A DNA stretch of 34,271 bases from a virus (taxonomy: Duplodnaviria > Heunggongvirae > Uroviricota > Caudoviricetes), in the IMG/VR virus record IMGVR_UViG_2734482775_000003, positions 1-34,271 of that record, one strand, 5' to 3'. A program made the translations under genes and the position numbers. Below, in pieces: positions 3,740 through 26,765 of the stretch; positions within the stretch are counted from its first letter, which is position 1; every line of letters begins with the position of its first letter. The notes below the pieces were generated by a model. The model was not told the origin of the DNA. It did not search any database and saw only the letters and a program-made list of their open reading frames with translations.

Positions 3740-3939
3740 ACAAAAAGACCTGGTTTCGCGCATACATGTGGGCGCTGGTATGCGTCCTCGTCTCTTTCAT
3801 TCTGTATGCAGGACTACTCCCCCGAATGATTTCATCAGACAGCTCCTTCCTGGTATTGCTGGGCATTTTCATTGCCATGCTGTACCCGGCAGGCGTTGTT
3901 CGCCTTTTCAGTAAGTACATCAAGGAAATCAAGCAATGA
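3736..3939 (+). CDS. Small two-helix membrane protein
   Basis: 67 aa with two hydrophobic stretches (WALVCVLVSFILYAGLL and FLVLLGIFIAMLYPAGVV); translationally coupled to the SPFH gene. Confidence 0.55.
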   Translation: MNKKTWFRAYMWALVCVLVSFILYAGLLPRMISSDSSFLVLLGIFIAMLYPAGVVRLFSKYIKEIKQ

Positions 3940-4766
3940 AGAAATTCAAACTCTTTCAGATTCTCCCGCTTTTTGCCGCCATCCTGCTGGTTGGTTGCGA
4001 TCGCGTTGAGCCAGGTAATGTGGGAATCAAAGTCAACAAACTGGGCGACGACAAAGGCGTCGGCGAAGTAGTTGGCGTTGGCCGCTACTGGACAGGCTGG
4101 AATACAGAGGTTTACATCTTCCCGACTTTCAAACAAATGAAGACTTACGATGAGCCGTTCAACTTCCAGATGAGTGACGGCACAACCATCGGCTATCACA
4201 TCGGCGTGGCCTACAAAGTTGATCCATCCAAAGTTACCACGGTGTTTCAGACCTACCGCAAAGGCGTGGACGACATTACCGACACTGACCTGCGCCAGAA
4301 GATCGCCGACGCACTCAACCGACTGGCCAGCAAAATGACCACCGATAAATTCATCGACGGTGGCAAGTCTGAACTGCTGGATTCAGCACTTAAAGATATT
4401 CAGGCAGAAATGACACCCATCGGCATTCAGGTAATGAGCCTCTCTTATGTCGGTAAACCGGAATATCCGCCAACCGTTATCGACAGCATTAACGCCAAAG
4501 TCACGGCAAACCAGAAAACCCTGCAACGCGAACAGGAAGTAAAACAGCGCGAAGCAGAAGCCAACATGTTGCGCGCAGAAGCTGCCGGACAGGCTGATGC
4601 CATTCGCACAAAAGCCCAGGCTGAAGCCGACGCCATTCGTTTACGCGGCGAAGCTCTGCGCCAGAATCCCGGCGTTATGGAGCTGGAAGCGATCAACAAA
4701 TGGAACGGCACGCTGCCGCAATACATGACCAGTAACACCGCTGTTCCGTTCGTTCCCGTGAAGTAA
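3936..4766 (+). CDS. SPFH/band-7 (stomatin/prohibitin/HflKC-like) lipoprotein
   Basis: Lipoprotein signal with lipobox LLVGC; central SPFH-like domain followed by an Ala/Glu/Gln-rich coiled-coil (QREAEANMLRAEAAGQADAIRTKAQAEADAIRLRGEA), the usual architecture of bacterial band-7 proteins. Confidence 0.7.
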   Translation: MKKFKLFQILPLFAAILLVGCDRVEPGNVGIKVNKLGDDKGVGEVVGVGRYWTGWNTEVYIFPTFKQMKTYDEPFNFQMSDGTTIGYHIGVAYKVDPSKVTTVFQTYRKGVDDITDTDLRQKIADALNRLASKMTTDKFIDGGKSELLDSALKDIQAEMTPIGIQVMSLSYVGKPEYPPTVIDSINAKVTANQKTLQREQEVKQREAEANMLRAEAAGQADAIRTKAQAEADAIRLRGEALRQNPGVMELEAINKWNGTLPQYMTSNTAVPFVPVK

Positions 4767-4928
4767 TGACACCCGGCCAGTGCAAACCGCTGGCCGGAGC
4801 AGTATCAGGATTTTTTAGTATGCCGTTCTCACAAAAAAACCGCTTGCCATGCCGCAATCAGTCAGGTTACATTTTCGCTGCACCTCATAAAACGGGTGCC
4901 GGGTTTCGCAGCCTGCTGACTACAAGAG

Positions 4929-4958
4929 CGCACAACCGCGCCAGCGGTTTTTTTGTGC
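4929..4958 (+). terminator. Putative intrinsic terminator inside the early region
   Basis: GC hairpin CCGC-GCCA-GCGG followed by a T7 run, flanked by CGCACAA / TTGTGCG. Confidence 0.4.
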
Positions 4959-5133
4959 GTACTGTATTGCCACGTTTTTTTCGCGTCAGAATTATGGCGG
5001 GGCGTACGGGGCCGACTTCGGTCGGGCCGGGATCTCTTGTAGCCGGTACTGCGAACCTCGTACGTCTCGCCACCCACAGTTTCGCAGCTCTGGATGGTGA
5101 GCTTTCACAACTTACTACAAGAGGCCACATATC

Positions 5134-5364
5134 ATGGCAAACCGCAAACAGCACCGCGCTATCGCGGAGCGTCGTCACATCCAGACTGAAATCAACCGCA
5201 GACTTTCCCGCGCATTCCGCGTCGCTAAAATCATGCACATCAATATGCTGCATGAGCGTAGCTGCGAACTTTCAAACCTCTACTCATCCGCTGTTTTCAG
5301 TTATCTGGCGGATGATCTGCGCGAGCTTCAGCAGCTCATCCAGCAGCAAAACAAACTCCATTAA
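5134..5364 (+). CDS. Hypothetical Arg-rich small protein
   Basis: 76-aa ORF directly after the structured non-coding stretch. Confidence 0.4.
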   Translation: MANRKQHRAIAERRHIQTEINRRLSRAFRVAKIMHINMLHERSCELSNLYSSAVFSYLADDLRELQQLIQQQNKLH

Positions 5365-5436
5365 TTCCTGTTCCGGGCCTTTCCTGCACCTTGCGGCGGG
5401 AGGCCTTCGCACATCTGTAACCAGAGGATTGCCGCA

Positions 5437-5802
5437 ATGATTCTCGCCAACGACTTTCTTGAATACCTGCTCAACACAGAGCGTGATCTTGCCGTTCGCG
5501 TGCGTGAACGTTATGACATGTACCTGAAATCCCTGCCTGTACCGCAGCTCGCTGACGGAAAGATTGTTATTGATGGTCGCTACATGATTGACAGCCACGA
5601 GGGAAATTACAGGCTTTACCGCATTGAAGGTGGCACCCCGTCCGTTATTGGCATTTACCAGCGCCCATCCTCTGCAATCGTCGATGTGATTGCCGACAGC
5701 ATCCGCATCACACATCGCCATGCCGACACAGAAGACACCGTGCTGGAAATTCAGCGGCTGGCTACAGTCTGCCGCGACACCCTGAATGGCATGACGAAGT
5801 AA
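5437..5802 (+). CDS. Hypothetical protein immediately upstream of gpA
   Basis: 121-aa ORF, same strand, 6 bp before the gpA start. Confidence 0.5.
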   Translation: MILANDFLEYLLNTERDLAVRVRERYDMYLKSLPVPQLADGKIVIDGRYMIDSHEGNYRLYRIEGGTPSVIGIYQRPSSAIVDVIADSIRITHRHADTEDTVLEIQRLATVCRDTLNGMTK

Positions 5803-5808
5803 ATCACT

Positions 5809-8631
5809 ATGACGGCAGAGTACATCAGGGACTGGCAACAACCGCGCCACGCAGTAGGACGTGAAGGAACGGGGATCCCCGCACCTGAATCCGCACTTTC
5901 CTCCTGGCTGGATGCCTACCGGGCAGAGAACGAGCGCCGCCAGGAAATGGCTGACGCGGCGTTCTCCGCCACACCGCTGGGCAACCTGATTAATAAAAGC
6001 CTGGACGCACAGGAAAAGCAGGACAAAACCATCACACTGGCCAGAGAAGCCAGAAAACAGGCACGCGGTGCGGTGGATGAAGCCATGGCCTCGCTGCGCC
6101 TGCTGCCGTCCTATCTGCGCGATCCGCTTATTCGCCACCTCTCCTTCCTGCGCAAAAAACAGGAAGCCGATCGCCGGAAAGGCAAAAAGAGCTGGCAGGC
6201 GGAACGCTATGCACGCGGAACCCTGCGCAAAATATTGGAACGTCTGGCCCGCACTGACGGACGCTGGCTGACTCCGGGTTATCGCTCCCTTGCCGGACGT
6301 GAACGTCTGGACGATTTACTTTACCTGCCGCAGCTCAACAAACACCAGATACAGACACTGGCCGTCATGACGGCGGCAATGTTCAGCAGCACCTTCGAAA
6401 AACTCTGCGATGGCTTTGGCGCGACCGATGGCGAGCTGACCATGGATATAACGCTGAAGGCGTATCAGCTGCTGGCTCGCATGGCGTTACATCTGCACAC
6501 AGTGCCTCCGCATTATGACGCACTGACAACAGACAAAGACCGGAGGAACGAACCGGACACAGAACTGCTGCCGGGTGCAATCCTTCGCCTGACCTGTGCG
6601 GACTGGTGGAAACGCAAATTGTGGCTTTTACGTTGCGAATGGAGAGAGGAACAACTCCGCGCTGCCTGTCTGGTTTCCAGAAAAACATCCCCCTATCTGA
6701 GTCAGGATGCATTAAGTGAATTTCGCGCACAGCGCGAGAAAACACGCGATTTCCTGAAAAGTTTCATGCTGGAAAATGAAGACGGGTTCACGATTGATCT
6801 CGAGACGGTGTATTACGCAGGTGTCAGTAACCCGGTCCACCGTAAAGCAGAAATGATGGCCACCATGAAGGGACTGGAACTTCTGGCCGAAGCCCGTGGC
6901 GACAAAGCGGTGTTTCTGACTGTCACCTGCCCGTCAAAATACCACGCCACAACAGAGAACGGTCATCCGAATCCCAAATGGAACGGGGCCACCATGCGCG
7001 ACTCCAGCGATTACCTGGTTAACACGTTTTTTGCGGCGGTCCGCAAAAAACTGAACCGCGACGGCCTGCGCTGGTATGGCATCCGCACGGTGGAGCCTCA
7101 CCATGACGGCACCGTGCACTGGCATATGATGGTCTTTGCTCATCCGGAAGAAATCGACAGCATCGTGGCCATCACCCGCGATATTGCCATTCAGGAAGAC
7201 CGCCACGAGCTGGGCAATGATATTACTCCGCGCTTTAAGGTGGAGTACGTCGACGGCTCCAAAGGCACGCCAACCAGCTACATCGCCACCTACATCGGAA
7301 AAAACCTGGACAGCCGCGCCGTGGATGGAATCGACCCGAAAACGGGCAAACCACGCGTTGACCACGAAACCGGAAAATCAATGGCCGAGAGCGTGGAGCG
7401 CGCCATCGGCTGGGCGCGCCTTCATCGGGTCCGCCAGTTCCAGTTCTTTGGCATCCCCTCCCGTCAGGTGTGGCGTGAACTGCGCCGCCTTGCCAGCCAG
7501 ATGGCACGCAACCCGGAAGGCCCGCAACGGCTGAAGGATGACGCAATGGATGCGGTACTCGCTGCCGCTGATGCCGGATGTTTTGCCACCTACATTGAAA
7601 AACAGGGTGGCGTACTTGTTCCGCGCAAGGACTACCTGATTCGCACAGCCTACGACCTCGCAGATGAGCTGAACGATTACGGCGAACAGAGTGTACAGAT
7701 TTACGGGATCTGGTCGCCATTCATCGGGGAATCCTCCCGTGTGTGCACGCATCCGGATAACTGGAAGCTGGTAAGACGTAAACCGGAAGCGGAAGACAGC
7801 GCCCGCGAAAATGGTTTTGACCTTCAGGGCGGCCCTGCCGCCCCTTGGACTCGTGGCAATAACTGTCCCCGTGTACAGGAAACGGACAACAACGGGACAG
7901 AACAGCCGGAAGAACGGCCAGCACCGTGGCCGCAGCTCCCTGACGGCGTTGAAGTGAACGAATGGATGCGCTCACTGAAACGGCACGAACGCCGGGCGCT
8001 GATGCGTTCGCTTCGTGACAAACAGGCAAAAAACAGCAGTGATGAAATGCAGAGCTGGACACAGAGCCGCAAACAGCAGCGGCCTTTGCCTGATAACCAC
8101 GAATTACTCGCTAAAGAATGGCGGGAGTCTGCTGAATCTCTCGGCCTGCATATCGGTGAACAGCAGATGCAGCACCTGTTACGGGGCGGCAGTCTGTACG
8201 TTGACGGCAGCATCATTGCACCGCAGGGATTTGAAATTGTACGCAAACCGGATACCCGCCCGGACAGCCGAATCACGCAGCTCTGGCAACGCCTGAGCCG
8301 TAATCACGGCGTAAGCAGCACGGAGATCCGCCATAACCCGGTCGCCAGCTATCTGGAACAGCTTGGGGTATCAGACCCTGAAGCCGCCGCACGCCTGGCA
8401 TCCACACTTCAGCAAGACCAGAACACCATGAAAACACCCGTTACCGTGCTTTCTGACATGCTGCGCGCCATCCGCGACGCAGAGCACGCACAGAGAATCA
8501 GTGAAACCACTGAACGCGCCCGCCGCAAAGCAGACCTGCTGCGGGGTGGCCTGACCAGTGGAAACAAAAAACAGACAAAAACGGGATTCACAAATCCCGT
8601 AAATGAGCAAAAAACGCGCCGCGATATATGA
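5809..8631 (+). CDS. A: Rolling-circle replication initiation endonuclease, P2 gpA family (HUH relaxase-type)
   Basis: HUH-type motif TVHWHMMVFAH and paired catalytic tyrosines in SYIATYIGKN; position between the early operon and the packaging genes; about 180 aa longer than P2 gpA as I recall it. Confidence 0.9.
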   Translation: MTAEYIRDWQQPRHAVGREGTGIPAPESALSSWLDAYRAENERRQEMADAAFSATPLGNLINKSLDAQEKQDKTITLAREARKQARGAVDEAMASLRLLPSYLRDPLIRHLSFLRKKQEADRRKGKKSWQAERYARGTLRKILERLARTDGRWLTPGYRSLAGRERLDDLLYLPQLNKHQIQTLAVMTAAMFSSTFEKLCDGFGATDGELTMDITLKAYQLLARMALHLHTVPPHYDALTTDKDRRNEPDTELLPGAILRLTCADWWKRKLWLLRCEWREEQLRAACLVSRKTSPYLSQDALSEFRAQREKTRDFLKSFMLENEDGFTIDLETVYYAGVSNPVHRKAEMMATMKGLELLAEARGDKAVFLTVTCPSKYHATTENGHPNPKWNGATMRDSSDYLVNTFFAAVRKKLNRDGLRWYGIRTVEPHHDGTVHWHMMVFAHPEEIDSIVAITRDIAIQEDRHELGNDITPRFKVEYVDGSKGTPTSYIATYIGKNLDSRAVDGIDPKTGKPRVDHETGKSMAESVERAIGWARLHRVRQFQFFGIPSRQVWRELRRLASQMARNPEGPQRLKDDAMDAVLAAADAGCFATYIEKQGGVLVPRKDYLIRTAYDLADELNDYGEQSVQIYGIWSPFIGESSRVCTHPDNWKLVRRKPEAEDSARENGFDLQGGPAAPWTRGNNCPRVQETDNNGTEQPEERPAPWPQLPDGVEVNEWMRSLKRHERRALMRSLRDKQAKNSSDEMQSWTQSRKQQRPLPDNHELLAKEWRESAESLGLHIGEQQMQHLLRGGSLYVDGSIIAPQGFEIVRKPDTRPDSRITQLWQRLSRNHGVSSTEIRHNPVASYLEQLGVSDPEAAARLASTLQQDQNTMKTPVTVLSDMLRAIRDAEHAQRISETTERARRKADLLRGGLTSGNKKQTKTGFTNPVNEQKTRRDI
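8577..8606. repeat. Palindromic 30-bp repeat, copy 1 (inside the gpA 3' end)
   Basis: caaaaACGGGATTcacaAATCCCGTaaa, internal palindrome ACGGGA/TCCCGT. Confidence 0.6.
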
Positions 8632-8707: not shown

Positions 8708-9667
8708 ATGAAAATTTGTATCGACGACGGCTCCACCAACATCAAGCTGGCATGGACTGAGAACGGCGAACGCCGCAACGCCATCAGCCCGAACAGCTTC
8801 AAGTCGGAATGGTCTGCGCCGTTCTGTGGCACGCAGCCCGCGAACTATATGCTTGATGGCGTGCGCTATGGTTTTGATCCGGTCAGCGATCGCTTTGTCC
8901 AGACGACCGACACGCAATACCAGTACAGCGATGTGAATGTCATTGCCATTCATCACGCGCTGGTCAAATCAGGCATCACGCCACAGGAGGTGGATGTGGT
9001 TGTCACCCTGCCACTGAGCGAGTATTTCGACACAAACGCACAGCCGGACATGACCAACATCAACCGCAAAAAAGCGAACGTTATGCGCCCGGTGGAGTAC
9101 CAGAACGGCGAAGCATTCACTATCCGTAACGTACGGGTTATGCCTGAATCCATTCCGGCTGGCTTTAAGGCACTGGCTGACATGAGTCCGTTTGAATCCC
9201 TGCTGATTGTGGATTTGGGCGGAACCACGCTGGATGTGGCAAAGGTTCAGGGGCAACTGGCAGGTATCAGCCAGATGTTTTGCGATCCACACGTAGGCGT
9301 TTCTCTGATGGCCGATGCCGTACTGTCGGTGATGGCCACTAACGGTATGCGCACCAGTCACCACATCGCCAATACCATTATCGAACATCGCCATGATGAA
9401 GCCTGGCTGCGCCAGCACATCCACAATGACGCGCATTACGCCAGCCTGATGGCGGTTATTCGTGAAAAGGAAGAAACACTGAAACAACGCGTGATCCGCG
9501 CGCTGGCGGGTTTTTCGGGTTACGGGCGGGTGATGGTTGTCGGTGGCGGGGCGGAGATTGTGGCACCCGCTATCCGCGAAGCCTGCGGAGTTAATGCGAC
9601 TTTCATCGCGGACGGGGTGCCACAGTTTGCTCTGGTTAATGGGCTGTACGCAATGGACAAGGAGTAA
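8708..9667 (+). CDS. parM: ParM/StbA-family actin-like segregation ATPase
   Basis: N-terminus MKICIDDGSTNIKLAW, plus YSDVNVIAIHHAL, VMPESIPAGF, LLIVDLGGTTLDV and GYGRVMVVGGGAE, all closely matching plasmid R1 ParM motifs as recalled. Confidence 0.85.
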   Translation: MKICIDDGSTNIKLAWTENGERRNAISPNSFKSEWSAPFCGTQPANYMLDGVRYGFDPVSDRFVQTTDTQYQYSDVNVIAIHHALVKSGITPQEVDVVVTLPLSEYFDTNAQPDMTNINRKKANVMRPVEYQNGEAFTIRNVRVMPESIPAGFKALADMSPFESLLIVDLGGTTLDVAKVQGQLAGISQMFCDPHVGVSLMADAVLSVMATNGMRTSHHIANTIIEHRHDEAWLRQHIHNDAHYASLMAVIREKEETLKQRVIRALAGFSGYGRVMVVGGGAEIVAPAIREACGVNATFIADGVPQFALVNGLYAMDKE

Positions 9668-9671
9668 ACCA

Positions 9672-9986
9672 ATGACGACACCAACCAGACGGATAAGTTT
9701 CTATCTGAAGCCAGTCGCCGTCAATAGTGAACGGGAGGCGTGTAATTACCTCGACAGCCTGCCAGCCTCTGAACGCAGCCGCGCGCAACGCGCGGCCTTT
9801 CTGGCCGGGCTGGCACTCATAAAACGCGATCCTGCATTTGCCTATTGGTTGGCCGAATGGCCGGAAGAAGGAGCTGCGCCAGCCAAGAATAATATTCAGA
9901 GTAAATATGCCAGCGCACCTGCCACCGGAAGCAATCACAGCACTAGCGAGATAAGAAAGAACATTCAGTCATTTTTCCCAGAGTGA
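9672..9986 (+). CDS. parR: ParR/StbB-family centromere-binding adaptor
   Basis: N-terminal region RRISFYLKPV...DSLPASERSRAQRAAFLAGLAL parallels R1 ParR (DSIPQGERSRLNRAALTAGLAL); AAGGAG RBS; directly follows parM as in par operons. Confidence 0.75.
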   Translation: MTTPTRRISFYLKPVAVNSEREACNYLDSLPASERSRAQRAAFLAGLALIKRDPAFAYWLAEWPEEGAAPAKNNIQSKYASAPATGSNHSTSEIRKNIQSFFPE

Positions 9987-10005: not shown

Positions 10006-10437
10006 ATGGCAACTATCCCCAAAAAATGGTTACAACGCAAAATTGCAGACCTTGAATCGTGTCGTGAAGACATCCCGTTTGGCCTTGATGAAAACGATCA
10101 CAATATGTTAATCGCACTGAAAATCGCACTCACATCGCTGGAAGCGAAACCTGTTGCATGGACTGATGATGAGGAACTGCGTGATGTCAAGCAGTATGGT
10201 TTCGGTGAGATATTTCAGTGTCCGCCAGATAAATACGCGGACCCGCGACGTGTTATCCCTATGTATCGAGAGCCGCCAGCGCCAGCAGTACCAGATGGAC
10301 TGGTTAGAGCGGTGCGTTTCTATGAACAGGTAAAGCGTGAGAATCCGCCAGTCGAAACTGGAGTATGGAAAGACGCTATTGACTGGGTGACCAAAGAGGC
10401 TTGCCAAGCTGTAGACATTGGCATCAAAGGAGAGTGA
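10006..10437 (+). CDS. Hypothetical protein, co-operonic with parMR
   Basis: Strong RBS AGGAGAGGAG before the ATG; 143 aa; no motif recognised. Confidence 0.55.
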   Translation: MATIPKKWLQRKIADLESCREDIPFGLDENDHNMLIALKIALTSLEAKPVAWTDDEELRDVKQYGFGEIFQCPPDKYADPRRVIPMYREPPAPAVPDGLVRAVRFYEQVKRENPPVETGVWKDAIDWVTKEACQAVDIGIKGE

Positions 10438-10438
10438 T

Positions 10439-10702
10439 ATGGCAACTTTGACAAAAAAAGAACAAGCATGGTTGAGCGAATTACAGGACGTTCTTGATCG
10501 CTGTCCATCACCGAAAAAAATTGGTTTTTACACCATTGGCGATAAAAACATTTACCTGTATGACCTACGCCGCATGGATGAAATCATGGAGGCTCTTGAT
10601 AATCGTTCGTCAATGGATTGGTGTGTTGCTGTCCATGATATGAATGCAGGGTTTGATGAAAAGATTTTGTTCCCCTCATCAGTTGAAAGCACAGCAGGAT
10701 AA
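10439..10702 (+). CDS. Hypothetical protein, co-operonic with parMR
   Basis: ATG 1 bp after the upstream stop; 87 aa; followed by a terminator. Confidence 0.5.
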   Translation: MATLTKKEQAWLSELQDVLDRCPSPKKIGFYTIGDKNIYLYDLRRMDEIMEALDNRSSMDWCVAVHDMNAGFDEKILFPSSVESTAG

Positions 10703-10736: not shown

Positions 10737-10763
10737 AAAGCGCCTCAGGGGCGCTTTTTGTTT
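10737..10763 (+). terminator. Intrinsic terminator closing the parMR-orf143-orf87 operon
   Basis: Hairpin GCGCC-tcagg-GGCGC followed by TTTTTGTTT. Confidence 0.7.
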
Positions 10764-10789
10764 GCACAAAAGTGCACAAATTTGCACAA
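10763..10789. repeat. Three direct TGCACAA repeats at 10-bp phasing
   Basis: tTTGCACAAaaGTGCACAAatTTGCACAAttttttt; helical-turn spacing suggests an array of protein-binding sites. Confidence 0.5.
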
Positions 10790-11288
10790 TTTTTTTGAAC
10801 GACTTTTTACCCTTCCGGCCCGCATGGCGGCTGGATCCGTCAAGGATCCGTGCGTGCACAAAAAAACGCGCTTTTTCTGCGCGCAGGTGACGGGGGAACA
10901 GCCCGCGTTTCAGGGGGTAAACAGCATTCCCTGAACGATGTCGCAGCGACACAACGGAATGGCTGTCTTTCTCTCGCTGAGCGTGAAAAATACGTGAGGG
11001 CTTTTGATTTGATGGGGTGACTGATAAGGCCGTCAAAATCGCACTGAGGCGACGAGAACATGCAGTCAGCACGGCGGGATTGCGTAAGAGCCTGACCGTC
11101 GATGATGACAATAAGCTGGAAGGCGTCGTGAAATTATCTGATTGATACAGGAGCTGGAGAGTCGGGGCATAAATTTTTTATGCCCCGGCGAAGCAGCAGA
11201 CAAGCGAAGCGCGTCAGCGATACGGCACCTTGCCGACCATACTTCATAAGTGCAAAATACGAGCAAAGAAATCAATGGAGGCTGTCTT

Positions 11289-11813
11289 ATGGTCATTAAT
11301 TACAAGCAGTTAAGAGAAAAACGGGAGCAGGTAAAGGAGAGCTTTCGCCGCAATGAAGATCTGACCCCGCTTGTACGCCTTGCCCAGGGCATTGTTGATG
11401 CTTATGAAATCTCGCTGGAGCTGCCATCACAGACCTGGACAGATAGCGACGGTAATCGCCAGCATTACGTTTCATGTGGACTGGAAGCAGCCGAAGGATT
11501 TCGCAGAATGCCTTTATCCCAGATCCCTGCCGCTACCCCCAAAGCACGAGGCAGCAATGATGAGCGAAAACTGACTTTTAGTATTGAAACGGTGGTTGAC
11601 GACACACCTGGCGAAGTCGCGTTCGTACACACTCCTGTTTCGATCGCAATGTATAACGATGAAATACAGGTTCGCGTTAATAATAATATCGTGCCACTTA
11701 AAGAAGGTAATTCACCCTACACCACCGTTTGTGAAGCCATTCAATATTACGTTCTCTCTGAAATTGATAATCTCAAGCCTGACGGCACCCAGAAAATGGT
11801 TCAACTCTGGTAA
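11289..11813 (+). CDS. Hypothetical protein (about 174 aa), orphan accessory gene between hotspot and portal
   Basis: ATG at 11289 in frame with track ORF 11250..11813; followed by a strong terminator; no motif recognised. Confidence 0.5.
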   Translation: MVINYKQLREKREQVKESFRRNEDLTPLVRLAQGIVDAYEISLELPSQTWTDSDGNRQHYVSCGLEAAEGFRRMPLSQIPAATPKARGSNDERKLTFSIETVVDDTPGEVAFVHTPVSIAMYNDEIQVRVNNNIVPLKEGNSPYTTVCEAIQYYVLSEIDNLKPDGTQKMVQLW

Positions 11814-11845
11814 AAAGGACAGCCCCATCACGGGGCTGTTTTTTC
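11813..11845. terminator. Bidirectional intrinsic terminator between orf175 and portal Q
   Basis: A-run, hairpin ACAGCCCC-atca-GGGGCTGT, T6 run; overlaps the Q 3' end. Confidence 0.7.
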
Positions 11846-12874
11846 ATCAAGAAGAGCATAAGAGTTAAAACGGATCACCTCTTCGCCAAGCCAGTCATTG
11901 ATGTGCTTCATAGCCTCCATGACGGGCATCAGCTCGTTAATTGCGTAAACCCGCGCGGCCTTCTCCACATCACCAAACGCACTTTTTTCGCCCGGCATCG
12001 CCCCCATCAGTTGCGGCGGAACGCGGTGCGCAGCCAGCACATCATCACGGGATGCCGCCTTAACATTCATGAACTCATCTTTTGCGGTGATCTGCTGGAA
12101 CGGCAAAATTTGCACCCCCTCTTTGCCCCCGTTGGGCGCATGAATGAGCACGTTTTTAAACGCACCACCACCACGTGCCCCCTGTAGCGTTTCTTTCAGG
12201 GAGTCCATGCTTTCGCGGTTTACCTGCGCTGCACCGATGTAGATGATGCACCCGGCGTGGGATCCGTTGTCGTAGTACAGTTTTCTGAACATGTCCGCCG
12301 AATGAGACAGGCTGGCCGAGAGTAATGCGCCAAGATATTCCGGCATGCCGTAGATTTCCTGGTTAATGTCCGGATTCATCAGGTGGCACACTTTGCCAGG
12401 GCGAAACTGGAACGCGTCCTTGCCATCATGCACATACCACCATGATTCAAGATCGCTTCCGCGTCGCATGTATTTCGCCAGGGCGTGCCGTAATTTAAGT
12501 GGTTCGCCGAGCATATTGCTTCGAAGCTCAAGGAATGCGTTACCGAACACAAACCAGTCCAGCGCCAGCGCCGAGAAATCCTGCCGGGAAAGCAGCGGGT
12601 GCGGGATGTAGCAACCGAGTAATACATTGCGCTTAAAGTAAAGCGCAGACTGATGCCAGGACGTTTGCCGGGCAGCTCTTGCCAGACCGTACCAGTCCAC
12701 CGGGGTTTCATACCACCGCCCGTTATCAGCACAGTACATATTGTCCAGCAGGTCATGCCCGGTCAGGCGATAAGGACCATCAAATGTGAATGCACTGAGC
12801 GATGATTCTTTCCTGAGCGCATCAGCGAGATCAATGCGTGAACTCATGCGCACTTTTTTATTTTTTCTGCTCAT
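11828..12874 (-). CDS. Q: Portal (capsid vertex) protein, P2 gpQ family
   Basis: 348 aa; position and orientation (leftward, adjacent to terminase ATPase) as in P2; recognised by overall similarity to P2 gpQ. Confidence 0.85.
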   Translation of the reverse strand: MSRKNKKVRMSSRIDLADALRKESSLSAFTFDGPYRLTGHDLLDNMYCADNGRWYETPVDWYGLARAARQTSWHQSALYFKRNVLLGCYIPHPLLSRQDFSALALDWFVFGNAFLELRSNMLGEPLKLRHALAKYMRRGSDLESWWYVHDGKDAFQFRPGKVCHLMNPDINQEIYGMPEYLGALLSASLSHSADMFRKLYYDNGSHAGCIIYIGAAQVNRESMDSLKETLQGARGGGAFKNVLIHAPNGGKEGVQILPFQQITAKDEFMNVKAASRDDVLAAHRVPPQLMGAMPGEKSAFGDVEKAARVYAINELMPVMEAMKHINDWLGEEVIRFNSYALLDEKTAP

Positions 12875-14625
12875 CAGAACTCCATAACCGTGAAACGCTC
12901 GTTTTCTCCTTCGCCGCCAATCGGTTCGTTAATGACAGCAAGCATGGTTGCCCACGCAAGGTCGCCGTGGCTGATCCCCCTCGCGCGGTCCGTTTCGTAA
13001 GTGATAAAGCCGCCCGGTGTTTTCACCTTACGCACGGCGTTAAAGGCCGCGACCAGCTCGCGTTCGGCGCGATCGTATTCCCACCGCCCGGCACGCATTA
13101 TTTGCAGCATTTTCAGTACCAGCGACCGTTTTGATGACAGCGTGAAGGTGTACGGAATAGCAGCAGGGAAAAACCGTTTCACTATCTGATAAACAGCCTC
13201 CCCGTTCCCGCCCGTCACATCAATGCCGATGTGTTCCACGTTGTAGCGATACGTGAACTCTTCAATGACTCTGGCCTGTTCTTCAAACTCCAGCCCCTGA
13301 ACGCGTCGCGTCTCCACCGTTCGAAAACGGCCACCAGGAACAGCCGGAGGAACCACCACGGACACAGCGCCGCTGTCGCCGTTGCCGCTGCTGCCGTTTG
13401 CGTCATACCCAATCCATACCGGACGATTCCCCATCGGGCGGGGAGCAAAAGGTTTCCAGTCTTTCCAGTCGTCGTACCCGTCAACGCCGCAGCCAATCAG
13501 GATATTCAGGTTAAATGCCGATTCCCCTTCGCGGACAAACTCACACATATAGAGATTGAGAAACTCGTCTTCGGTGTTTTCATCACGAATTTCGTCGATA
13601 TCGGTGTGTTTCCAGCCGTGATTAACCACATCTTCCAGCGTGACAATTTGCCGCCACGTCCGGTCAGGACAGATAAGCCCGTTATGCAGCGTTTTCCAGT
13701 CCACAGAAAAACGCTGGCGTTTATGCGTGGCCTTTTTCTCATTCCAGCGGTCGCCGTTCCAGTAGGCGTATGCCTCGTGCGTTTCGGTGGATGGCGTGGA
13801 GAAGTAGGTGCGCCGCAGTCCGCTGAGGGTTGCCATCGCGCCAGCCACCTTGCGCAGTTCAGCAAAGCGACTGACCCAGAAAAATTCATCAAAATAAAAA
13901 TTGCCCGTATAGGACTGTGCCGACGCAGCAGAAGTGCCGAGAAAATGCAGCTCTGCGCCGTTTGAGAGGATGATTTTATCGCCCCCTTTCAGCTCCACAT
14001 CAACTTCAGCCGCGGCCTTCTGAATAATGCTTTTAAACTGGAACGCCTGACGACGCGACGCAGACAAAAAAATCTGGTTACGCTGGTAAGGTTGCGCCAC
14101 ATCGTCACGCAGCGCCATCAGCAGTGCTTCCTGTGCAAAATACCAGGTCGCCCCAATCTGTCGGGATTTCAGGATCATCCTGTTACGTATCCCGGCTTCC
14201 CTGCAAAGGGTAAGGGAGTCAAACCAGCCACGCTGATGCCACTCCAGCCTGCTGATGATTTTTTCCCGCAGTGCGGCAATCTGTTCCGGCGTGAAATGAT
14301 TTTTGAGTTTTTTCGCCCGGCCTTTCTTTCCTGCGGCCATCACATCCGGCTGGCCATCATGCAGCTTTTTAAGCTGCCGGGTCAGCAGGTCTATTTCCTT
14401 AAAGTCACCGCCTGTTTTATTCTGTTTTTCAGTAAGCTGGATGAGGCGCGCATCGATGGACTGCGTGACACGCTGCACGGGTGGCGTTTCATCCCACTGG
14501 TCACGTTTTTTCCACGCATAAATCGTGTTCGGGTTTATTCCCATCAGACGTGATATTTCTGCGGGCGGATAACCCTGCCAGTAAAGTTGCCGCGCACGCT
14601 GGCGCACAAAAGCGTCCTGAATCAT
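12874..14625 (-). CDS. P: Terminase large (ATPase) subunit, P2 gpP family
   Basis: 583 aa, overlaps the Q start; divergent from the O-N-M capsid operon as in P2. Confidence 0.9.
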   Translation of the reverse strand: MIQDAFVRQRARQLYWQGYPPAEISRLMGINPNTIYAWKKRDQWDETPPVQRVTQSIDARLIQLTEKQNKTGGDFKEIDLLTRQLKKLHDGQPDVMAAGKKGRAKKLKNHFTPEQIAALREKIISRLEWHQRGWFDSLTLCREAGIRNRMILKSRQIGATWYFAQEALLMALRDDVAQPYQRNQIFLSASRRQAFQFKSIIQKAAAEVDVELKGGDKIILSNGAELHFLGTSAASAQSYTGNFYFDEFFWVSRFAELRKVAGAMATLSGLRRTYFSTPSTETHEAYAYWNGDRWNEKKATHKRQRFSVDWKTLHNGLICPDRTWRQIVTLEDVVNHGWKHTDIDEIRDENTEDEFLNLYMCEFVREGESAFNLNILIGCGVDGYDDWKDWKPFAPRPMGNRPVWIGYDANGSSGNGDSGAVSVVVPPAVPGGRFRTVETRRVQGLEFEEQARVIEEFTYRYNVEHIGIDVTGGNGEAVYQIVKRFFPAAIPYTFTLSSKRSLVLKMLQIMRAGRWEYDRAERELVAAFNAVRKVKTPGGFITYETDRARGISHGDLAWATMLAVINEPIGGEGENERFTVMEF

Positions 14626-22512: not shown

Positions 22513-23113
22513 TTCGTTGTTACCACCATCAGCCAGCAATTTCATGCGTTGTGCCGAAGCCGTCGGAACACGCATTACAGACATTCCGGTAGACCTCAAC
22601 ACGCTGTGGTCGCCGGACACCTGCCCGGTGCATCTGCTGCCTTATCTCGCCTGGGCGTTTTCCGTTGACCGCTGGGATCGCAACTGGCCGGAAGAGACAA
22701 AGCGACAGGTGATTCGTGATGCATGGCTGATACACCGACACAAAGGGACCATCAGCGCACTGCGAAGAGCCGTGGAGCCTCTCGGCTACCTGATTGAAGT
22801 AAAGGAGTGGTGGCAACTCAACGAGGAGCCAGGAACATTTCGCATTGTTGTCGGAGTACTTGATCAGGGCATCACCGATGAAATGTATCAGGAACTTGAG
22901 CGCCTTATTGCGGATGCAAAACCAGTAAGTCGCCATCTGACGGGGCTGGCGATCAGCCTGAGTGTGAACGGAAAGATTTTCGTTGGTACGGGATGCTATC
23001 ACGGCGATGCCCTGACGGTTTATCCCTACACCCCGGAGTCCATTATTGTCGAAGGGGATTATTTCCCTGCCCCGGCCATTCATTTAATTGATAATCTGAG
23101 AGTAAACGCATGA
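22505..23113 (+). CDS. I: Baseplate/tail-fibre attachment protein, P2 gpI family
   Basis: ATG at 22505 overlapping the J stop; position. Confidence 0.8.
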   Translation: MSNSLLPPSASNFMRCAEAVGTRITDIPVDLNTLWSPDTCPVHLLPYLAWAFSVDRWDRNWPEETKRQVIRDAWLIHRHKGTISALRRAVEPLGYLIEVKEWWQLNEEPGTFRIVVGVLDQGITDEMYQELERLIADAKPVSRHLTGLAISLSVNGKIFVGTGCYHGDALTVYPYTPESIIVEGDYFPAPAIHLIDNLRVNA

Positions 23114-24723
23114 CAGTGAAATACTACGCCATTCTGACTAATCAGGGCGCGGCACGACTGGCTAACGCGACGATGCTCGGCAGTAAGCTGAATCTGACGC
23201 AAATGGCCGTTGGTGATGCAAATGGTGTGTTACCAACACCAGACCCTGCACAAACAAAACTGATTAACCAGAAACGCATTGCACCGCTGAATCTTCTGAG
23301 TGTTGACCCTAACAATCAGAGCCAGATTATTGCGGAGCAAATCATCCCTGAAAACGAGGGAGGATTCTGGATCCGTGAGATTGGTCTTTATGATGATGAA
23401 GGTGTACTCATTGCGGTGGCAAACTGCCCGGAAACGTACAAACCGCAGTTGCAGGAAGGCAGTGGACGCACCCAGACTATCCGCATGATTCTGGTTGTCA
23501 CGAACACCGAAGCCATCACGCTGAAAATCGACCCGTCTGTGGTTCTGGCAACCCGCAAATATGTGGATGATAAAATCTCAGAGCACGAACAGTCACGACG
23601 TCACCCGGACGCCTCGCTGACCGTAAAAGGTTTTACTCAGTTAAGCAGTGCAATTAACAGTGAATCAGAAACACTGGCCGCAACACCGAAAGCGGTTAAG
23701 GCTGCATATGACCTGGCTAACGGGAAATATACCGCCCAGAACGCCACCACTACACAAAAAGGAATTGTTCAGCTCAGTAGCGCCACGAACAGCACGTCTG
23801 AAACGCTGGCAGCGACACCAAAATCTGTTAAGGCGGTAATGGATGAAACGAACAAGAAAGCACCATTAAACAGCCCGGCACTGACCGGAACGCCAACAAC
23901 ACCAACAGCGCCACAGGGGACTAATAGTACCCAGATCGCAAGCACGGCTTTCGTTATGGCCGCGATTGCCGCACTTGTAGATTCGTCACCTGATGCACTG
24001 AACACGCTGAACGAACTGGCTGCGGCGCTGGGCAATGACCCGAATTTTGCGACCACCATGACTAACGCGCTTGCGGGTAAGCAACCGAAGGATGCCACCC
24101 TGACGGCGCTGGCAGAGCTTGCTACATCAGCAGATAAACTCCCATATTTTACAGGGGCAGATCGTGCCGCGTTAACCGCGTTGACAAGTGTTGGACGTGC
24201 CATTCTTGGTAAAACCAGCACTCAGGGAGTTCTTGATTACCTTGGTTTAGGGGAAGGCTCTGCGCTGCCTGTTGGTGTGCCTGTTCCATGGCCTTCAGCC
24301 ACACCGCCAACAGGCTGGCTGAAATGCAACGGTGCGGCTTTTTCTGCTGAAGATTACCCTAATCTGGCAAAGGCTTACCCGACGTTAAAATTGCCTGATT
24401 TACGCGGTGAGTTTATTCGTGGCTGGGATGATGGAAAGGGAGTGGATAGTGGGCGAACTCTGCTTTCAGCACAAGGAGATGCTATCCGAAACATTACCGG
24501 GGTGGTTGGCTACAGTTCAATTGGCGATTCACAAGGGTTATTAGGATACGTGTCAGGGGCCTTTTCGGCTTCGGAGTCAAAAGCTCCCGCATTAAGTGGT
24601 GCATCAGCATCCGGGTATCAACGCTCCCTGTATGCGAATTTTAATGCTTCAGCCGTTGTCCCAACCGCAAATGAGAACCGCCCACGTAACATTGCCTTTA
24701 ATTATATTGTGAGGGCTGCATAA
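23110..24723 (+). CDS. H: Tail fibre protein, P2 gpH family; C-terminal part lies inside the invertible segment
   Basis: N-terminus and repeated SSATNSTSETLAATPKAVKA blocks match P2 H as recalled; hix-like crossover site lies within the codons for LDYLGLGE. Confidence 0.9.
   Translation: MTVKYYAILTNQGAARLANATMLGSKLNLTQMAVGDANGVLPTPDPAQTKLINQKRIAPLNLLSVDPNNQSQIIAEQIIPENEGGFWIREIGLYDDEGVLIAVANCPETYKPQLQEGSGRTQTIRMILVVTNTEAITLKIDPSVVLATRKYVDDKISEHEQSRRHPDASLTVKGFTQLSSAINSESETLAATPKAVKAAYDLANGKYTAQNATTTQKGIVQLSSATNSTSETLAATPKSVKAVMDETNKKAPLNSPALTGTPTTPTAPQGTNSTQIASTAFVMAAIAALVDSSPDALNTLNELAAALGNDPNFATTMTNALAGKQPKDATLTALAELATSADKLPYFTGADRAALTALTSVGRAILGKTSTQGVLDYLGLGEGSALPVGVPVPWPSATPPTGWLKCNGAAFSAEDYPNLAKAYPTLKLPDLRGEFIRGWDDGKGVDSGRTLLSAQGDAIRNITGVVGYSSIGDSQGLLGYVSGAFSASESKAPALSGASASGYQRSLYANFNASAVVPTANENRPRNIAFNYIVRAA
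24230..24255. other. hix/gix-like recombination site (left), inside H
   Basis: TTCTTGATTACC-TT-GGTTTAGGGGAA; 12-2-12 architecture; reverse complement has central AA matching the right site. Confidence 0.65.
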
Positions 24724-25325
24724 TGGATAACGCTGTATTAAATAGCGAGATTATTGCCACGAAGGCAGGGAATATTACCGTCTATAACTATGATGGTGAA
24801 ACACGGGAATATATTTCCACTTCAAATGAATATCTTGCCGTTGGTGTTGGTATCCCGGCATATTCCTGTTTAGATTCACCAGGCACATATAAGGCTGGTT
24901 ATGCTATCTGCCGTTCTGCAGATTTTAACTCATGGGAATATGTGCCAGACCATCGCGGTGAAATCGTCTATAACACCGAAACGGGAGAAGCCAAAGAAAT
25001 CACAACTCCGGGTGATTACCCTGAAAATACAACCACTATCGCCCCGTTAACGCCATACGATAAATGGGATGGTGAGAAATGGGTGACCGATACTGAGGCA
25101 CAGCACGGCGCAGCAGTAGATGCAGCAGAAGCACAGCGCCAGTCGCTGATTGATACTGCAATGGCCTCCATCAGTCTGATTCATCTGAAATTACAGGCCG
25201 GACGGAAGCTGACGCAGGCAGAAACAACCCGCCTTAACACTGTGCTGGATTACATTGACGTGGTGACGGCAACAGATACCAGCACAGCGCCGGACGTCAT
25301 CTGGCCTGAACTGCCGGAGGCGTAG
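24723..25325 (+). CDS. G: Tail fibre assembly protein (P2 gpG-like), active orientation
   Basis: 200 aa; start overlaps the H stop. Confidence 0.8.
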   Translation: MDNAVLNSEIIATKAGNITVYNYDGETREYISTSNEYLAVGVGIPAYSCLDSPGTYKAGYAICRSADFNSWEYVPDHRGEIVYNTETGEAKEITTPGDYPENTTTIAPLTPYDKWDGEKWVTDTEAQHGAAVDAAEAQRQSLIDTAMASISLIHLKLQAGRKLTQAETTRLNTVLDYIDVVTATDTSTAPDVIWPELPEA

Positions 25326-25737
25326 GCCATTCAATATCTGGCGCACCGGAAGTATCGACCAGTTCCAGTGCGTCCAGATAATCCAGCCACAAATTATATT
25401 GCGCCAGTTCCTCACCTTTCAGGCGACCAATCGCCGCTTTACCAGGCCATTGCTTACTGTTTATGTATTCGTTGACCTGATTAATCAATTGCTGCTTTTC
25501 CAGTTCGGCTGCGGCAATTTGTTCCTCATGAGTTGGCGGTGGAATATCAATCCATGCAGGCATTCCGTCGATGACACCTCTGTATTTTCCTTCTGGTGCT
25601 TCCTTCATAAATTCGGCGGCAACAGTGTCGTCAATTTCGATTCCATCATCGGGCCATTCGCCGGATTCCTGATAAGCGATTTTAAGCTCCACAGGGAAAA
25701 ACGCATTTTTATCGGCACTGAAAATATATTTCTGCAT
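25297..25737 (-). CDS. Alternative tail fibre assembly protein (G'), silent orientation
   Basis: 146 aa on the opposite strand, convergent with and overlapping G; tail-fibre-assembly-like C-terminus (DTSGAPDIEWP, compare G: DTSTAPDVIWP). Confidence 0.7.
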   Translation of the reverse strand: MQKYIFSADKNAFFPVELKIAYQESGEWPDDGIEIDDTVAAEFMKEAPEGKYRGVIDGMPAWIDIPPPTHEEQIAAAELEKQQLINQVNEYINSKQWPGKAAIGRLKGEELAQYNLWLDYLDALELVDTSGAPDIEWPTPPAVQAR

Positions 25738-25739
25738 TT

Positions 25740-26096
25740 CTACCGTCCTATCGAAATATAACTGAATCTGTATTGCTGTGAGATATCACTGGTTGCCACA
25801 CGCCACGCTGAATTACTGATATGTTCAAAATTTACAGACAAAACCTGCGGGGCAGGATTCGACGGGTCTGACTGAACGGCATCAGACATAACACTGACTG
25901 AAACCATCGGCTGATTAGGGAATGGTATAGGGAAGTGTCCACTGATAAAGCGGGTCGTGTTTCCTGAAAAAGTGCCAAACTGAACAATATATCCACCTGG
26001 TAGCCTGAACCATCCCGAACCAGAAGCGAATGCTCCCATATCCGGTATCTGATTATCTCCTGTGCCCACATCCCTTTTCGCCGCTTCTCCCAAACC
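25740..26096 (-). CDS. Alternative tail-fibre C-terminal cassette (H' variable part); promoterless, expressed only after inversion
   Basis: Minus-strand reading frame continues through the right hix site encoding ...NVGLGEAAKRD..., in frame with H ...YLGLGE at the left site; track ORF 25740..26138 covers it. Confidence 0.65.
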   Translation of the reverse strand, partial: GLGEAAKRDVGTGDNQIPDMGAFASGSGWFRLPGGYIVQFGTFSGNTTRFISGHFPIPFPNQPMVSVSVMSDAVQSDPSNPAPQVLSVNFEHISNSAWRVATSDISQQYRFSYISIGR

Positions 26097-26109
26097 AACG
26101 TTTAAGAAA
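26084..26109. other. hix/gix-like recombination site (right)
   Basis: TTCTCCCAAACC-AA-CGTTTAAGAAAA; resembles Hin hixL TTCTTGAAAACCAAGGTTTTTGATAA as recalled. Confidence 0.7.
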
Positions 26110-26165
26110 ATGCAGAGATTACGGCTAACTGGCATCATCCCCGGTTTTTATTCAGGGGATCCATC

Positions 26166-26765
26166 ATGCTTATTGGCTATGTCCGCGTATCAACAAATGA
26201 CCAGAATACAGAATTGCAGCGTAACGCGCTGGAGTGCGCAGGATGTGAACTGATTTTTGAAGATAAAATCAGCGGAACGAAATCAGCCAGACCGGGATTG
26301 AAAAAACTGCTCAGAACGCTATCAGAAGGAGATACGCTGGTTGTCTGGAAGCTGGACAGACTGGGCAGAAGTATGAAACACCTGATCACGCTTATTGAGG
26401 AATTGCGGGAAAAAGGTGTTAATTTCCGTAGTCTGACGGACAGCATTGACACATCAACACCCATGGGGCGTTTCTTTTTTCACGTCATGGGAGCTTTAGC
26501 CGAAATGGAACGTGAATTAATTGTAGAGCGTACACTGGCCGGGCTGGCAGCAGCACGCGCACAAGGACGCATTGGCGGACGTCGCCCGAAGTTGACAAAA
26601 GAACAACACGAGCAAATAGCGAGGCTGATTAAAAACGGTCATGACAGGAAACAACTGGCGATCATTTACGACATCGGCATATCGACGATTTATCGTTATC
26701 ACCCTGTAGGCGATATACAGGCTGAAGAAACAACCAGGCAGATTCAGGAAAATGAAAACCGCTAA
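26166..26765 (+). CDS. Serine DNA invertase, Hin/Gin/Cin/Pin family
   Basis: N-terminus MLIGYVRVSTNDQNTELQRNALE with catalytic Ser; LDRLGRS motif; C-terminal HTH (GISTIYRY); 199 aa. Confidence 0.9.
   Translation: MLIGYVRVSTNDQNTELQRNALECAGCELIFEDKISGTKSARPGLKKLLRTLSEGDTLVVWKLDRLGRSMKHLITLIEELREKGVNFRSLTDSIDTSTPMGRFFFHVMGALAEMERELIVERTLAGLAAARAQGRIGGRRPKLTKEQHEQIARLIKNGHDRKQLAIIYDIGISTIYRYHPVGDIQAEETTRQIQENENR

Follow-up and report, generated by a model that had tools for sequence, protein, structure and literature searches.

A single-gene accessory cassette of the PHROG 5091 family beside the portal gene of a P88-like Escherichia coli prophage

Results

Gene layout of the phage

The window (the whole stretch of DNA analysed, 34,271 nucleotides of IMG/VR record IMGVR_UViG_2734482775_000003) is nearly a whole prophage of E. 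coli, P88-like (Xuanwuvirus, Peduoviridae) and a member of the P2 family. Its features are listed in Table 1. Replication gene A (gpA) is followed by a ParM/Plasmid_stab_B partition pair, a module of a type found in about one quarter of P2-like prophages, which may persist as plasmids (Rousset et al. 2022, PMC9122126). Two small accessory genes of lambdoid type come next, then ~590 bp of non-coding DNA and the 174-amino-acid (aa) ORF that is the subject of this work. This ORF is oriented like the early A operon and opposes the late P-Q operon; the portal gene Q does lie downstream of it, as a first reading of the DNA from its letters alone (hereafter the sequence-only reading) had stated, and the terminase gene P comes next.

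Cargo on the A side of cos has turned over very recently. VTB97432v (L013 2253-3443) and PhiR44_2 have an extra 492-bp gene between the two small accessory genes, annotated in VTB97432v as an XF1762 family protein, that is missing in the window. The cos-Q region of VTB97432v is 100% identical to that of the window. The early region also contains, between a Cox-like gene and gpA, the gene of an SPFH/Band 7 protein and an overlapping 224-aa ORF, possibly another accessory pair. Elsewhere in the window, a serine invertase gene adjoins minus-strand copies of a tail-fibre C-terminal fragment and a tail-fibre assembly gene, and this block comes directly after the plus-strand tail-fibre genes; the region from 25297 to 26765 looks like a Gin/Cin-type invertible host-range switch. 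A Q gene with 99% identity was also found on a 226-kb contig (NZ_JBQPOM010000071.1, L039) labelled Vagococcus sp. WN89Y, a Gram-positive genus, a match that is likely due to assembly contamination or mis-binning.

Table 1. Features of the window discussed in the text
Feature	Position	Strand	Remarks
SPFH/Band 7 protein	3936-4766		early region
224-aa ORF	4766-5440		no Pfam match
Replication gene A (gpA)	5809-8631
ParM/Plasmid_stab_B partition pair	8708-9986		3' of gpA
Two small accessory genes	10006-10702		lambdoid type
Conserved cos-proximal backbone	10760-11217		in window, PhiR44_2, P88 and 520873, with or without the cassette
TGCACAA-containing repeats	10762-10795		three, tandem
cos-like 19-mer	10886-10904
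42-aa ORF	11017-11145		WP_001418074.1
cos-like 19-mer	~11046-11064
Palindromic hairpin	11163-11187		11-bp stem
Cassette-specific leader	11218-11288	+	71 bp; left junction versus P88/520873 after 11217
Promoter candidate, -35 TTGCCG	11230-11235
GTG opening the longest frame of the ORF	11250
Promoter candidate, -10 CAAAAT	11253-11258		17-nt spacer
Ribosome-binding site GGAGG	11277-11281		7 nt 5' of the ATG
174-aa ORF	11289-11813	+	525 bp; 174 aa from ATG; 19.8 kDa; pI 5.0; soluble
Bidirectional intrinsic terminator	11814-11844	both	13-bp-stem hairpin; inverted repeat I3
Portal gene Q	11828-12874	-	converges on the 174-aa ORF
Terminase gene P	12874-14625		converges on the 174-aa ORF, after Q
Tail-fibre genes	23110-25325	+
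Tail-fibre assembly gene	25297-25737
Tail-fibre C-terminal fragment	25740-26138	-
Serine invertase gene	26166-26765	+	Resolvase and HTH_7

A short leader and a bidirectional terminator

The sequence-only reading had given the gene a long upstream leader and considered that it might be RNA-regulated. Most of that stretch is the conserved backbone, which is kept in phages without the gene, so only the 71 bp confined to the cassette belong to the unit. The upstream region matches no Rfam family (best 17.7 bits against a threshold of 100), which leaves RNA regulation without support.

Within the leader, a sigma-70-like promoter candidate was read from the sequence by eye. It is weak (8/12, under the scanner threshold), and both of its hexamers are unchanged among alleles with dS 0.15-0.25; the candidate may have promoter activity. 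No LexA box (CTGT-N8-ACAG) lies upstream of the gene, and window-wide matches to this pattern are at chance level; an SOS-controlled antirepressor of the 186 Tum type was rejected on this ground. Likewise, no Ogr-type late promoter motif (TGT-N12-ACA) was visible upstream when the sequence was read by eye.

The strong bidirectional terminator that had been noticed 3' of the gene was borne out. Its hairpin lies between an A-run and a T-run, with a folding energy of -19.9 kcal/mol on the plus strand and -16.4 kcal/mol on the minus strand. It is common to the ORF and the opposing late P-Q transcript, and contains the last codons and the stop of Q. Comparable hairpins are found 3' of the Salmonella and Morganella homologues. 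The GC content is 0.43-0.52 over the cassette versus 0.52-0.58 in Q and P, a modest gap. The cassette has no partner gene: it holds one ORF, and the neighbours of the gene change in every family context.

The cos-proximal backbone

Both cos-like 19-mers lie upstream of the ORF in the conserved backbone. Alignment of the upstream region with P2 cos gave a score of 29 against a shuffled mean of 22.3 +/- 2.9 (z ~2.4), which is not significant, so the position of cos in the window is putative. The gene lies between this cos-proximal backbone and Q. The ~120 bp that had been quoted for the cos-to-Q distance in P2 was an underestimate: from cosL (1-19) to the Q stop (187) we measured ~168 bp.

The backbone also contains three tandem TGCACAA-containing repeats, which form an overlapping palindrome, and a perfect palindromic hairpin (CGGGGCATAAA/TTTATGCCCCG, -21.5 kcal/mol) that has no T-run. 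Both are kept in all P88-like phages and are candidates for protein-binding or packaging-signal elements near cos. A 42-aa ORF inside this non-coding block is annotated in RefSeq and in phage records and is probably not a gene.

An accessory cassette swapped into the cos-Q spacer

The borders of the cassette were defined by aligning the window and PhiR44_2, in which the gene is present, against P88 and 520873, in which it is absent. Among these four phages, the cassette (11218 to ~11845, ~630 bp) is found only in the window and PhiR44_2; the two others have ~30 bp at the equivalent site, and the junctions are clean. The right edge falls inside the 3' end of Q. The C-terminus of the portal protein reads ...ALLDEKTAP* with the cassette versus ...ALLDTQP... 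in relatives without it, and the exchanged segment takes in the last ~5-16 codons of Q (11828 to ~11878).

We searched 5426 complete E. coli genomes and scored the cassette as present at a query coverage of at least 80%. It was detected in 397 of the 1146 genomes that bear the locus (35%), which is ~7% of all complete genomes (397/5426), and the carriers include ST131 clinical strains such as JJ2434. Below the coverage threshold, every sampled genome had an empty site, with 58-59% coverage. P2 itself has no member of the family, and none was detected within 3.5 kb of Q in 80 P2-like loci from other species, using the same pipeline that recovered 25 of 25 positive controls. Many of these 80 loci have other convergent ORFs adjoining Q.

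This presence and absence, together with the 0/80 result, identifies the gene as cargo and not a structural gene, and the phage can do without it. What was swapped into the cos-Q spacer is a moron, an accessory cassette that is self-contained: its leader is short, a single gene follows, and a bidirectional terminator closes the unit. The earlier description of stand-alone, non-core cargo therefore stands, on the clean indel versus P88 and 520873, the carriage in 397/1146 genomes, the gene's own terminator and its position in the gpA-gpQ hotspot (see below). A core structural or packaging gene conserved in P2-like phages, which the sequence-only reading had named as the contrary outcome, was rejected, as the gene is missing in P2, P88, 520873 and 80/80 other-species loci. 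Four lineages had suggested that the cos-Q slot is canonically occupied by this family, which the same 80 loci rule out.

A toxin was among the functions proposed from the sequence. This role is unsupported, since the gene has no partner, its product shows no recognisable enzyme or membrane feature, and it is stable in ~7% of complete E. coli genomes. A toxin-antitoxin module was rejected because no adjacent partner exists within the cassette.

A conserved protein with a confidently predicted fold

The protein corresponds to RefSeq WP_000236495.1 and UniProt A0A0C5EXS4. It matches the PHROG 5091 profile with E=1.4e-67 (residues 1-168 versus profile positions 1-164 of 164), and for each of the 40 diverse relatives examined PHROG 5091 is likewise the sole matching family. 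An exhaustive profile search returned 89 homologue clusters (50% identity) of 155-185 aa. Full-length homologues were detected down to ~20% identity, and they keep the two family motifs, Y..SL.LP...W.D..G...PYV and F.I.TV.DD.P.GG. PHROG 5091 has no annotated function, structure or phenotype, and we found no paper naming WP_000236495, A0A0C5EXS4 or phrog_5091.

The gene is under strong purifying selection. Six E. coli alleles have dS up to 0.25 with dN no higher than 0.018, giving dN/dS values of 0.06-0.10. A spurious or decaying ORF that hitch-hikes beside Q would fit with its annotation everywhere merely as 'hypothetical protein', yet this explanation is very improbable: it is effectively refuted by the dN/dS ratio at such dS, and is also at odds with the full-length, motif-bearing homologues, the confident fold prediction, and the canonical ribosome-binding site and terminator. 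The single 174-aa gene described from the sequence is thus real.

The absence of a recognisable motif, also noted at first reading, was confirmed by profile searches. There is no credible Pfam match (best E 0.17), no NCBIfam match and no match in PADLOC-DB v2.0.0; the 40 relatives likewise have no Pfam or NCBIfam match, and a single marginal PADLOC match (PDC-S26, E=0.009). The protein has no transmembrane segment, hydrophobic segment or signal peptide. Its net charge is about -6, and the possibility of a DNA mimic was dropped as the pI is only ~5.

The remote-homology search and structure prediction recommended by the sequence-only reading placed the protein in PHROG 5091 and gave a confident fold with no solved or viral relative. 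AlphaFold, supplied with the 40-sequence alignment, produced an alpha+beta model (pLDDT 90.2, pTM 0.80) with a helical hairpin at the N-terminus, long strands forming an antiparallel sheet, and a helix at the C-terminus. Foldseek against BFVD returned nothing at E<=0.001, and a PDB profile search with the 40-sequence alignment returned nothing (best E=0.07). A PDB sequence search matched designed helical-repeat proteins (E=2.7e-7); these were rejected, as the score is the sum of three weak repeat matches of ~11 bits each (independent E at least 2.4). The fold matches of the model appear to be generic two-layer alpha+beta protein-protein interaction modules, and are not evidence of homology. 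Family-wide conservation extends to S42, W50 and several polar residues (D52, T101, D104, D105, Y39 and Y60); the latter could belong to a site for ligand binding or catalysis instead of an interface with another protein.

Genomic contexts of the relatives

Members of the family adjoin Q in several other P2-like phages. In Salmonella, the gene lies before Q and is convergent with it (protein 61% and Q 74% identical to those of the window), and the same arrangement is found in Morganella and in a metagenome (protein 24-25%, Q 49-54%). In E. coli B771, the gene adjoins a Q with 82% identity; its protein is only ~20% identical overall (hhalign probability 99.5%). The B771 gene is on the other side of the conserved hairpin (11163-11187 in the window), which indicates an independent insertion. 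The corresponding RefSeq CDS (NZ_CP120557.1, L021 2747-3457; 236 aa) joins the divergent PHROG 5091 member to the reading frame of the 42-aa backbone ORF; it is probably over-extended at the N-terminus, as the family alignment and an AAGAGG ribosome-binding site point to a start at residue 70 (167 aa). In Trabulsiella, the family gene is located after gpA, ahead of HicB and Phd-Fic.

In lambdoid phages, the family gene occupies either the antiterminator-to-holin slot, which is where stx sits in these phages, or the slot between the lysis genes and HNH/terminase. In E217-like tail/baseplate modules it is found in about four positions: between hub and spike, between spike and sheath initiator, beside Dit, and between chaperone and tape measure. 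The gene of the Serratia E217-like module has a 4-bp stop/start overlap with the hub gene. Erwinia LS-2018a, the sequenced phage nearest to this Serratia module (hub 83% identical), also has hub, spike and initiator, but no gene separates them. In another E217-like tail module (L025 3552-5902), an accessory island lies between the tape-measure region and the Dit gene, immediately 5' of the PHROG 5091 gene; it encodes HicA, a DUF1902 protein, an Arc-like repressor and a P22-type antirepressor. In every non-P2 context the family gene is co-directional with the surrounding lytic operon. PHROG 5091 thus circulates as cargo, alongside many others, in accessory slots of three phage backbones.

An E217-like baseplate or tail structural protein is ruled out by the shifting position and by the absence from Erwinia LS-2018a. 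A broader possibility is an accessory of the virion or of its assembly that is not essential: made late, it would be packaged or ejected with the DNA (DarA-like), or would aid the assembly of neighbouring structural proteins. The relatives do recur beside portal, hub, spike, Dit, tape-measure and terminase genes and are co-directional with late operons. We nevertheless consider this improbable: the position in the tail module differs from phage to phage, the gene is missing in the nearest relatives and in 80/80 other P2-like loci, and in the window it is convergent with the late P-Q operon and has no visible TGT-N12-ACA motif upstream.

The lambdoid slots could also suggest, by analogy, a lysogenic-conversion factor that alters host physiology or virulence and not phage susceptibility, as a classic moron in stx/bor/ctx-type slots: known conversion genes include stx in the antiterminator-to-holin slot and bor at the lysis-to-cos end, both shared with PHROG 5091. 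The frequency of the cassette in pathogenic lineages, including ST131 (e.g., JJ2434), is consistent with such a role. Conversion is nonetheless unlikely for a cytoplasmic protein that has no secretion signal or membrane anchor and no similarity to any known virulence factor, and whose family occurs in hosts of very different lifestyles (Serratia, Morganella, Xenorhabdus, Yersinia and environmental metagenomes).

Comparison with hotspot cargo and known accessory genes

P2-like phages have a diversity hotspot between gpA and gpQ, and the locus is within it (Rousset et al. 2022, PMC9122126; Moura de Sousa et al. 2026, PMC13586616). Table S5A of PMC9122126 contains WP_000236495 at least 167 times, in the arrangement with partition genes and with no label other than 'hypothetical'; the protein is not among the tested systems of Table S2 of that paper. 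The known cargo of this hotspot is overwhelmingly defence, and recognised anti-defence is rare, being found in 28 of 1511 P2-like prophages (PMC13586616). The 174-aa gene resembles this cargo in lying between gpA and Q and in being variable among P2-like prophages. It differs in being located on the Q side of the cos-like sequences, whereas old and tin of P2 are on the A side, and in encoding a protein without a defence-type domain.

Classical morons include bor and lom of lambda, HK97 gp15, stx in lambdoid phages, and ctx at the left cos end of phiCTX. Like these, the cassette is a single gene with its own terminator, present or absent in otherwise collinear genomes and inserted between core transcription units, and the PHROG 5091 slots recur downstream of the antiterminator, downstream of the lysis genes and within tail modules. 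Unlike them, the product is not a membrane protein, lipoprotein or secreted toxin, and its own promoter is only a candidate.

Another comparison in the P2 family is with Tin, a single-protein exclusion factor encoded in this hotspot, which is likewise the soluble product of a single accessory gene near cos and is not known to have a recognisable enzyme motif either. The two proteins have no detectable homology (hhalign probability 0.5%), and their genes have opposite orientations relative to the early operon. No sequence homology was found to small phage anti-defence proteins of the Acr, Ocr and DarA types, and the 174-aa protein is not a strongly acidic DNA mimic. No aca-like regulator was noted in the family loci examined.

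These comparisons bear on an explanation modelled on P2 Tin, in which the prophage expresses the protein for defence or exclusion. Such a protein would be made in the lysogen from its own promoter, and would stop an incoming phage from growing, either by binding one of its proteins or by guarding a host target. Consistent with this are the hotspot location, the insulation of a transcription unit that has its own terminator and opposes the late operon, the retention in 35% of P88-like prophages under purifying selection, and the very different alleles in the same spacer of related backbones. At the L025 locus, moreover, HicAB, Arc and an antirepressor share an accessory island with a family gene. 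On the other side, apart from the marginal PDC-S26 match neither the protein nor its 40 relatives match PADLOC, it is unrelated to Tin, and it has no effector-type domain or membrane segment; many relatives lie within late operons, with little or no space for a promoter of their own. The protein is also not named in the supplements of the DefensePredictor paper, which is weak evidence. We regard this explanation as possible and rather doubtful. The defence or exclusion function put forward in the sequence-only reading has no direct support, and is no more likely than counter-defence or another lytic-cycle role.

Discussion

We tentatively favor the view that the 174-aa protein serves in conflicts between phage and host or between phages, with a lean towards the lytic cycle, in counter-defence or host takeover. 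Most likely, it would bind another protein stoichiometrically in such a conflict. The reading as a binder and not an enzyme is based on the lack of Pfam, NCBIfam and PADLOC matches, a pI of ~5, the lack of a transmembrane segment and a predicted fold of the generic interaction-module type. The family-conserved polar residues count against it, as they could form a ligand or catalytic site. In the window phage, transcription might start from the gene's own weak promoter candidate or be read through from the early operon, which has the same orientation; such read-through would cross a terminator at 10737-10757 and the hairpin at 11163-11187. In other phages, the gene would be transcribed as part of late operons.

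A lytic-cycle role in counter-defence or host takeover appears slightly more likely than a prophage-expressed exclusion factor. This lean is based on the co-directional embedding of relatives in lytic operons, including the 4-bp overlap with the hub gene, on the co-directionality of the window gene with the early A operon, and on the small size of the protein and its lack of a recognisable enzyme motif. It is also based on a divergence that is decoupled from the backbone, as two E. coli lineages with Q at 82% identity have proteins at ~20%, and on the swapping of alleles among backbones that are nearly identical. Several observations count against the lean. The known cargo of the gpA-gpQ hotspot is overwhelmingly defence, and the promoter candidate is weak (8/12). 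Moreover, in the window phage hairpins before the gene and a terminator after it insulate it as a unit, and it opposes the late operon; a prophage-expressed gene is expected to be arranged in this way.

For the family as a whole, PHROG 5091 could conceivably be a widespread group of conflict proteins with an undescribed fold, positioned beside virion and packaging genes in three unrelated temperate-phage architectures, although we hold this with little confidence. In one version, the protein would be a lytic-cycle inhibitor or decoy that neutralises host immunity triggered by late proteins, for example the portal or the terminase. In the converse version, it would be a new single-protein exclusion factor. 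As a member of this widespread family, the 174-aa protein is a reasonable, not an exceptional, conflict-protein candidate.

The gene is so far mechanistically unsurprising and, if inert in assays, would be one more uncharacterised moron. It is at the same time abundant, strongly conserved, predicted to adopt an unmatched fold, present in three phage types and never named, which makes it a cheap and well-defined experimental candidate. Natural phage pairs are available, with PhiR44_2 or vB_EcoM-705R2 carrying the gene and P88 lacking it, and these could reveal if the spacer on the Q side of the P2 hotspot houses immunity or counter-immunity functions.
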